Shown piece after piece: positions 36,666 through 37,480 of a DNA stretch of 46,288 nucleotides; position 1 is the stretch's first letter, and every line of letters starts with the position of its first letter. Source of the stretch: Escherichia phage 2H10; the sequence record NC_049950.1; one strand, 5' to 3'. The notes below the pieces were generated by a model. The model saw nothing but the letters and a program-made list of their open reading frames with translations, did no database searches and was not told where the DNA came from. The position numbers and the translations under genes were made by a program.

Positions 36666-37154
36666 ATGAGTCTTTTGAATGAAGTTCAGAAATTCATTGA
36701 AGCCCATCCGGGGTGTACTTCCGGAGACATTGCAGATGCTTTTGCAGGTTACTCACGGCAGCGCGTTCTGCAGTCAGCAAGCAAGTTACGTCAGAGTGGG
36801 CGTGTGGCTCACCGTTGTGAAGGAGATACACGCAGACATTTCCCGCGCCTGACTGAGAGAGCGCAGGAGCCGGAACCACAACCAGTTCGTGAAACCAGAC
36901 CTGTGCGCAATTTCTATGTCGGCACTAACGATCCCCGGGTAATTTTGTGCCTGACCCGCCAGGCTGAAGAACTGGAGTCCAGGGGCTTATACCGTCGTGC
37001 TGCAACTGTGTGGATGGCGGCATTCCGTGAAAGCCACTCCCAGTCAGAACGAAACAATTTTCTGGCGCGCCGTGAGCGGTGCTTACGGAAAAGCAGCAAG
37101 CGCGCTGTATCGGGTGATGAGTGGTATCTGTCAGGGAATTACGTGTGGGCTTAA
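36666..37154 (+). CDS. 162-aa protein with PerC/ANR-like C-terminal region
   Basis: The C-terminus AEELESRGLYRRAATVWMAAFRESHSQSERNNFLARRERCLRK resembles the PerC/Pch core from memory. The N-terminus looks like a winged helix. Confidence 0.5.
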   Translation: MSLLNEVQKFIEAHPGCTSGDIADAFAGYSRQRVLQSASKLRQSGRVAHRCEGDTRRHFPRLTERAQEPEPQPVRETRPVRNFYVGTNDPRVILCLTRQAEELESRGLYRRAATVWMAAFRESHSQSERNNFLARRERCLRKSSKRAVSGDEWYLSGNYVWA

Positions 37155-37480
37155 TGACGACGTTAACTCAATGCCAGCAGCAGGTGCTGGATATGCTGAT
37201 TTCTTATCAGAAAGAACGTGGTTTCCCGCCAACCAATCAGGAGGTGGCAGCCATGCTGGGATACCGTTCGGTGAATGCAGCGGTGGAGCATCTTCGCGCA
37301 CTGGAGAAAAAAGGCGTCATCACGATAAAGCGTGGCGTGGCCCGGGGTATCACGCTTCATACCACAGTGAAGGACGACGACAGCGAGGCAGCCGGGATTA
37401 TCCGCGCACTGCTTGCCGGTGAGGAAAACGCCAGACTGCGTGCAGCCCACTGGTTACATGAGAGGGGCCTGAAAGTATGA
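37154..37480 (+). CDS. LexA N-terminal DNA-binding-domain-only protein (no S24 peptidase domain)
   Basis: TAATG overlap with the upstream gene. [68 protein letters not shown] aligns residue-for-residue with LexA 1-69 (from memory). Confidence 0.75.
   Translation: [108 protein letters not shown]

Follow-up and report, generated by a model that had tools for sequence, protein, structure and literature searches.

The genome of Escherichia phage 2H10 (sequence record NC_049950.1), whose whole stretch of 46,288 nucleotides is called the window here, carries at 37154-37480 on the plus strand an open reading frame (ORF), from ATG to TGA, for a protein of 108 amino acids that has the DNA-binding head of LexA and no S24 peptidase domain. 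This LexA-like gene belongs to PHROG family 362 and is the same gene as orf42 of phage SfV. In place of the hinge and the peptidase domain the protein has a two-helix tail, which is conserved in the family, and in a sister clade of Klebsiella-type prophages the gene has SOS boxes in cis. For what purpose would a phage keep such a protein? The likeliest answer would be a RecA-insensitive, SOS-box-type DNA-binding regulator, which is made when host LexA is depleted and which represses SOS-box promoters again; we hold this reading tentatively, with somewhat less than even confidence. Assignment of the gene and of its domain is not new but routine, and is already in public annotation, where the family names are computational only. 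New here are a fixed block of genes in the nin region, the SOS operon of the sister clade, and the fact that position 44 is not Glu in any of the tail-bearing members examined.

A LexA head with a private tail

Residues 1-69 of the protein (37154-37360, plus strand) are homologous to residues 1-69 of LexA and make up a winged helix-turn-helix domain. The alignment with the LexA N-terminal domain, which had been proposed in a preliminary description of the window, is borne out from several sides. The Pfam model LexA_DNA_bind (PF01726) is matched over its whole length (model positions 1-65 of 65) with 68.8 bits and an E value of 3.4e-19, the gathering cut-off being 23.7; BLASTP aligns the protein with E. 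coli LexA without gaps, with 35 identities in 68 positions (E 2e-21); and the best sequence match in the PDB is the LexA N-terminal domain 1lea (E 8e-16). A monomer model by AlphaFold2 (AF2), made from an alignment of 37 sequences with a predicted local distance difference test score (pLDDT) of 83.9 and a predicted template modelling score (pTM) of 0.57, has an alpha1-alpha2-alpha3-beta-beta winged helix followed by helices at 74-88 and 93-103, and its predicted three-helix winged helix-turn-helix (HTH) fold superimposes on the LexA N-terminal domain. The DNA-binding head is a genuine LexA domain and not a generic winged HTH, to which the preliminary description had allowed that the similarity might be limited.

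In E. coli LexA the residues that contact DNA are Ser39, Asn41, Ala42, Glu44 and Glu45 (cited in PMC13416735), and in the recognition helix region of the phage protein (residues 39-52; 37268-37309, plus strand) four of these five are kept while Glu44 is replaced by Val. Compared with the E. coli LexA N-terminal domain (residues 1-84; PDB 1lea/1leb and 3jso), Pro40 is also changed to Val, and the helix reads SVNAAVEHL instead of SPNAAEEHL; the early reading of this helix, with Asn-Ala-Ala kept and one Glu turned into Val, was correct. Across the family Ser39 is invariant, Asn41 and His46 are conserved in at least 90% and Glu45 in 71%.

The peptidase domain is missing, as had been claimed at the outset. 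No match to PF00717 (S24) was found by Pfam in the protein, whose chain stops at residue 108, and the lexA equivalog model TIGR00498 is matched at positions 1-91 of 203 with 67.6 bits, which is under its cut-off of 110.95. Where E. coli LexA has the S24 domain for dimerisation and cleavage, the phage protein has a private two-helix tail. Is the cleavage site lost as well? HMMER places Ala88-Gly89-Glu90 of the protein (LAGE, residues 87-90) over Ala84-Gly85-Glu86 of LexA (AAGE), and to this extent it was not exact to say that the Ala-Gly site had been replaced. However, the stretch contributes no score to the alignment, the segment is helical in the AF2 prediction, and the equivalent of Ala88-Gly89 reads AN or VG in closely related proteins and is missing in distant ones. 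What stands of that claim is that Ala88-Gly89 is not a conserved cleavage site.

The tail forms a predicted two-helix hairpin (residues 74-103; 37373-37462, plus strand), with pLDDT of 86-88 over the block, and is presumed to be an oligomerisation module. It had been described as helical, which agrees with the model, and as unrelated, which does not hold for the family: a comparison of 14 members, the most distant with 40% identity, shows only hydrophobic residues at positions 82, 83, 86, 87 and 100 and no change at Ala97 or Leu101. The tail gave no match against Pfam and no convincing match against known structures. By its conservation it is a signature of the family and not a filler. Because of the hydrophobic positions and the invariant Ala97 and Leu101, a packing or oligomerisation surface is expected, and the tail probably takes the dimerisation role of the S24 domain and gives self-association. 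As a separate observation, two proteins, P0128 (222 aa) and P0131 (141 aa), have two tandem LexA DNA-binding domains per chain and no peptidase domain, which would be an alternative route to a "dimeric" uncleavable LexA head.

The whole protein (residues 1-108) matches the profile of phrog_362, a family of ~106 aa named "transcriptional repressor", along positions 1-106 of 106 (3.5e-58). Genes with 93-96% amino-acid identity are present in SfV (orf42), SfII, SfIV, mEp460, cdtI and the Stx2a/Stx2c/Stx2k phages, where they are called "LexA family transcriptional regulator", "LexA DNA binding domain protein" (mEp460_046) or, wrongly, "SOS-response repressor and protease LexA"; SfV orf42 has the same length as the gene in the window and the same place directly upstream of rusA. 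Of 5426 complete E. coli genomes, 2233 (41%) have the gene, with up to four copies per genome. In pairwise comparisons with SfV and mEp460 the ratio of nonsynonymous to synonymous substitution rates (dN/dS) is 0.23-0.36, without any change in the recognition helix and with the majority of changes in the tail; conservation over the full length, tail included, goes from 96% down to 40% identity across several phage lineages. The gene is under purifying selection. RogA was considered as a comparable protein and ruled out, as it carries an S24-like domain.

An SOS operon in the sister clade

The protein of the Klebsiella-type sister clade matches phrog_362 (4.1e-40) and is 42% identical to the protein in the window over residues 3-101, tail included (8e-26). 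A near-consensus SOS box (e.g. TACTGTTTATTTATACAGTA) lies upstream of the LexA-like gene in 28 of the 34 sister loci from IMG/VR, at most 700 bp away in 25 of them; it overlaps the -10 region of a promoter, which is preceded by a terminator hairpin. The operon then runs from the SOS box through dinI (Pfam 8e-22; not in every locus), a phrog_1813 ORF, the LexA-like gene, a phrog_1212 ORF, RusA (also not in every locus) and DUF968, and in locus L004 on to Q. Since the gene sits in a host-LexA-controlled operon, the sister-clade protein, with a LexA DNA-binding domain only, should be made exactly when host LexA is cleaved. This operon is an unexpected support for an SOS link of the LexA-like protein.

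The layout resembles that of the Gifsy prophages described by Lemire et al., in which a terminator, a LexA box, dinI, an antirepressor gene (gfoA/gftA) and irsA follow one another (PMC3121763). The sister-clade loci share this layout and the position in the nin region, and the LexA-like gene stands in the place of irsA. Gifsy repressors are non-cleavable, and likewise the immunity repressors of the two sister loci examined, L004 and L102, are HTH-only proteins of 128 aa without S24. Is irsA then a LexA-like gene? This was ruled out: the Gifsy-1 irsA homologue STM2620 is DUF1367 (7e-97) and has no LexA domain, so that its analogy with the sister-clade gene is positional only. The window phage is different from Gifsy, in that it has a cleavable CI and its dinI is located elsewhere.

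The phrog_1813 ORF is present in all 28 sister loci with the SOS box and in none of the window-type loci. It encodes 82-101 aa (L102 7589-7894; L004 5713-5961); the SOS box, or dinI, precedes it and the LexA-like gene follows, and by this position it may be guessed to be a candidate for a new antirepressor family. It is unlike GfoA, the Gifsy antirepressor in its position, and homology to GfoA was ruled out because there is no similarity.

Position of the gene and the block inherited with it

In the window the LexA-like gene is a member of the rightward early operon, in which cro, CII (CP76), Ash, the replication genes, PerC, the LexA-like gene, RusA, KilA-N, DUF968 and Q are arranged in this order. 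Its ATG overlaps the TAA of the PerC-like ORF upstream (TAATG) and its TGA overlaps the ATG of rusA (ATGA), by which it is apparently coupled to both neighbours in translation. An alternative GTG start at 37121 would lengthen the ORF, but homologues are 104-108 aa long. From the position in the early operon, and because no convincing terminator was found on the plus strand from cro to Q in the window, it can fairly be supposed that the gene is expressed from pR with delayed-early timing. The preliminary description had also derived its expression from pR, and its "early" is to be taken as delayed-early, not as immediate. On the minus strand at 33226-33900 the window encodes a CI-type immunity repressor, and since this carries an S24 peptidase domain (Pfam Peptidase_S24, 1.5e-26), the phage would be induced through cleavage of the repressor and not through an antirepressor.

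Which genes travel together with the LexA-like gene? When 80 close relatives from IMG/VR were compared, a block of ~3 kb (~36500-39650) was found to be always inherited with it. The block consists of the PerC/YfdN-like gene (36666-37154; Pfam PerC, 1.1e-09), the LexA-like gene, rusA for a Holliday-junction resolvase (37477-37866; Pfam RusA, 8.9e-15), a KilA-N gene (37886-38683; Pfam KilA-N, 2.2e-26) and a DUF968/HNH gene (38685-39680; Pfam DUF968, 3.6e-81), all on the plus strand; the synteny with rusA is seen in SfV, mEp460, mEp390, L003, L004 and L006. KilA-N and DUF968/HNH, on the RusA side of the block, have homology in 70-77 of the 80 related loci. Other modules are freely exchanged, the immunity region being homologous in 24, the replication genes in 22 and Q in 19 of the 80. 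Since those modules vary beside a near-identical protein, it is unlikely that a target in cis lies within the immunity region or at the late promoter. In relatives with 42-47% identity (mEp390, L003, L004 and L006) the order LexA-like, RusA, DUF968 and Q is kept while the upstream neighbour varies.

This upstream neighbour is a Dam methylase in two of them, L003 and L006, and the close relatives SfV and mEp460 have one as well. A dam methylase gene of ~650 bp separates the PerC-like and the LexA-like genes in most relatives (SfV L007 29614-30267; mEp460 L008 35775-36428) and is directly upstream of the latter. It is missing at the junction at 37154 in the window, where the PerC-like gene takes this place and the two genes are joined by the TAATG overlap. 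The PerC-like ORF of the window (162 aa) has an N-terminal MarR-like winged helix, seen in weak PHROG and NCBIfam matches, and a C-terminal PerC domain, and is a homologue of YfdN of prophage CPS-53. Proteins of the PerC family activate virulence loci of enteropathogenic and enterohaemorrhagic E. coli.

SOS boxes and dinI in the window

The window contains four perfect CTGT-N8-ACAG sites, where 0.47 would be expected. Two of them are the tandem boxes that had been noted before a phage dinI homologue, and they do exist: by pattern search they lie at 26466-26481 and 26494-26509, upstream of dinI at 26202-26450 on the minus strand (Pfam DinI, 1.2e-19). This dinI is the candidate target unit and the boxes are candidate sites for the LexA-like protein. 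In a position weight matrix (PWM) made from 21 E. coli SOS boxes, which is fit for ranking and is not curated, they score 19.2 and 22.8, inside the range of the training boxes, and only these two of the four resemble real SOS boxes. The homologous region is annotated as a LexA binding site in VT1-Sakai. The dinI boxes are certainly host-LexA-type sites, and host LexA is a full explanation for them. The other two matches, at 34886-34901 in the Ash-family ORF and at 13335-13350 in the tape-measure ORF, have GC-rich spacers, score less than the 9 required for listing by the PWM, and probably arose by chance.

Half-sites with an altered spacing were also considered. In a census of CTGT-Nx-ACAG and ACAG-Nx-CTGT with x from 0 to 20, the spacings N8 and N12 occur four times each, and both counts exceed those of all 200 simulated sequences. 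The N12 sites share no common setting, and three of the four are inside ORFs; this candidate was rejected.

SOS boxes are found at further places in related phages. A strong box, TACTGTAAAAATAAACAGTG, lies at the 5' end of a DNA methylase gene in the late region downstream of Q (SfV L007 34170; mEp460 L008 41021; ~20 of 80 loci, L009-L088), and this methylase module is not present in the window. In one immunity type, near-consensus boxes lie inside the coding sequence of an S24-type cI-like repressor of the mEp460 type (mEp460 L008 31970; L003 836; 19 of 80 loci, L009-L088). This is an odd place for an SOS box, and it may indicate an internal or antisense promoter.

What may the protein do?

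If the protein is a RecA-insensitive regulator of SOS boxes, its most likely action would be as follows. The winged-helix head of LexA would be kept for DNA binding, while the two-helix hairpin in place of hinge and S24 would supply self-association. Production would be limited to lytic development, from a delayed-early gene under pR in the window and, in the sister clade, from a promoter repressed by host LexA; there, as well as in the window phage following SOS induction, this would be a time at which host LexA is depleted. The dimer would then bind LexA-type, CTG-containing half-sites and impose repression again on those SOS-box promoters that had been opened by LexA cleavage driven by activated RecA (RecA*). 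Its targets would include SOS-controlled units of the phage, which are dinI in the window and, in the sister clade, the operon of dinI and the phrog_1813 ORF; SOS genes of the host may be among them too. In function, though not in structure, it would be comparable with lexA3 (Ind-), a full-length LexA with a mutated cleavage site: if the model holds, SOS boxes would be occupied despite activated RecA. An extended form of this idea regards the protein as a RecA-proof surrogate of LexA that closes SOS boxes again when lytic growth has been entered, or when the SOS-controlled operon of the sister clade has fired, by which it would give negative feedback on the SOS units of the phage, dampen the host SOS response and the LexA-controlled induction modules of co-resident prophages, and shape SOS dynamics and induction of Shiga-toxin phages in trans; this we regard as doubtful.

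Several points weigh against a regulator of SOS boxes and keep our confidence in it below even. A search of the full-text literature found no experimental work, on DNA binding or otherwise, on the lambdoid PHROG 362 family, and returned only GIL01 gp6, the paper on the Gifsy antirepressors, and RogA. Glu44, a contact residue of LexA, is present in no tail-bearing member examined, and Glu45 is also gone from the largest sister subclade, whose helix reads NAVALHL; because of these losses the specificity may have shifted from CTGT. In the window-type clade there is no SOS box in cis to the LexA-like gene. The SOS link in the sister clade may be positional only, since the cassette of SOS box and dinI fills the same slot of the nin region in Gifsy-1 ahead of the unrelated DUF1367. 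Geometry of the dimer, and hence spacing of its half-sites, would not be fixed by a monomer model with a pTM of 0.57. An obligatory partnership with dinI is ruled out: in the co-occurrence survey that the preliminary description had proposed, 89 phage records have the dinI module and 59 have the LexA-like gene; at least 27 have both, and at least 33 have dinI without the LexA-like gene, while SfV has the LexA-like gene and no dinI, so that the two modules occur independently. Finally, GIL01 gp6, the only characterised truncated LexA homologue of a phage, binds a different palindrome and is an activator (PMC6182141).

This last case suggests another role: the protein may be a phage-dedicated regulator that has a private operator, and its drifted LexA domain would switch a promoter of the phage and would not act at SOS boxes. 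We regard such a role as the main rival and a serious one, with a confidence a little below that in the regulator of SOS boxes. Gp6 of GIL01, a Bacillus tectivirus, is an early product that accumulates after induction; its binding site is GaCACAnnTGTGaC, and it is an activator of the late promoter P3 (PMC6182141). Like the protein in the window, it is encoded by a phage and has LexA_DNA_bind (Pfam PF01726, 7.9e-14) and no S24. BLASTP gives no alignment between gp6 and the LexA-like protein, and they meet at the level of profiles: gp6 matches phrog_362 weakly (2.8e-5) and phrog_3502 best (1.8e-21), and the LexA-like protein matches phrog_3502 with 1.3e-15. However, gp6 has 66 aa, consists of the DNA-binding domain only without a helical tail, and comes from a LexA of Gram-positive type, whereas the contact residues of the 108-aa protein are of gamma-proteobacterial type. 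By these comparisons the LexA-like protein appears to belong with the truncated LexA homologues encoded by phages and to be set apart from gp6 by its tail, its contact residues and its lambdoid nin-region or SOS-operon context.

The loss of Glu44 in all tail-bearing members examined, and of Glu45 in one subclade, would also suit a private operator, and so would two palindromes inside the fixed 3-kb block. On the other side, the protein keeps most of the residues with which LexA contacts DNA, no recurrent operator candidate is convincing, and the immunity, replication and Q/late-promoter modules vary among carriers of a near-identical protein. A site of the gp6 type (GaCACAnnTGTGaC) is not enriched in the window, where one match, with two mismatches, stands against 1.68 expected and is not at a promoter.

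What are the two palindromes? One is a near-perfect palindrome of 27 bp, TTGAATGAAGTTC A GAAATTCATTGAA, at 36675-36701, right where the PerC/YfdN-like ORF begins. The other, at 38020-38077 inside the KilA-N ORF, is imperfect and 58 bp long with the core GAGTTGCA-N4-TGCAACTC. Both were considered as an operator and rejected, for nothing ties them to the LexA-like protein. The core of the second returns as a hairpin directly after rusA in five of the 80 close-relative loci (L061, L067, L068, L069 and L076), followed there by the SOS box TACTGTATTTATGAACAGTG and then by the KilA-N gene. The shared core is probably a mosaic junction, and these five loci show that there is a LexA-controlled variant of KilA-N.

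Could the protein be no transcription factor at all? As a DNA-binding accessory of RusA and DUF968/HNH, it would tether or target these enzymes by its winged HTH and use the tail for protein-protein interaction. The tight, translationally coupled linkage to rusA in the window, the order LexA-like, DUF968 and Q, with or without RusA, that is kept to 42-47% identity while upstream neighbours vary, and a weak match to the profile of O-like replication initiators (phrog_678, 0.005) would be in line with this. We nevertheless think it improbable: RusA and DUF968 are often met with in lambdoid phages that do not carry the LexA-like gene, and Gifsy-1, for one, uses NinG; RusA is not detectable in 22 of 28 sister-clade loci; the retained residues for base-specific contacts argue for sequence-specific binding; and the gene order may merely reflect descent of the nin region.

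Far less probable than this is a decoy or a substrate cleaved in trans. Ala88-Gly89-Glu90 would then be cut by the S24 domains of host LexA, UmuD or phage CI, or the protein would compete for activated RecA. The C-terminal domains of LexA and CI are capable of intermolecular cleavage, and the alignments do reach residue 86 of LexA in HMMER and model position 91 in TIGR00498; the scoreless, variable and helical nature of the LAGE segment argues against it, and so does the fact that RecA* engages the C-terminal domain of LexA, which is missing in the phage protein. That the gene is a decaying, functionless remnant of a captured lexA, as its look of a truncated LexA and the plain name "LexA repressor" given by some pipelines could suggest, is effectively refuted by conservation of the full length in several phage lineages, even at 40% identity, by dN/dS below 0.4, by intact copies in 41% of complete E. 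coli genomes, and by a PHROG of its own with matching length.

Other features of the window

The window resembles a complete lambda-like temperate phage of E. coli, with terminase at ~935 and lysis genes at ~43.4-44.5 kb, and its structural module is ~97% identical to those of Escherichia phages Turner, Kati and PhiR34_1. A gene for a serine invertase of the Hin/Pin type at 24390-24980 on the minus strand adjoins the tail-fibre genes, which suggests a host-range switch. Directly past Q, on the opposite (minus) strand, lies a CspA-like cold-shock gene at 40862-41074.

Concluding remarks

What would be the meaning of a LexA head that is kept by so many prophages? If it acts instead at a private operator, it would be an ordinary small regulator of phages. 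If it occupies SOS boxes in an uncleavable manner, a gene found in very many prophages would alter the wiring of the central DNA-damage circuit of E. coli, pathogenic strains included, and with it prophage induction, Shiga-toxin release, mutagenesis and antibiotic tolerance would be at stake. It would also be, after gp6 of GIL01, a second and architecturally different capture of the LexA DNA-binding head by phages. Given the prevalence of the gene, Shiga-toxin phages included, and its recurrent placement beside or inside LexA-controlled units, the hypothesis of a surrogate LexA is potentially consequential, and it is cheap to test.

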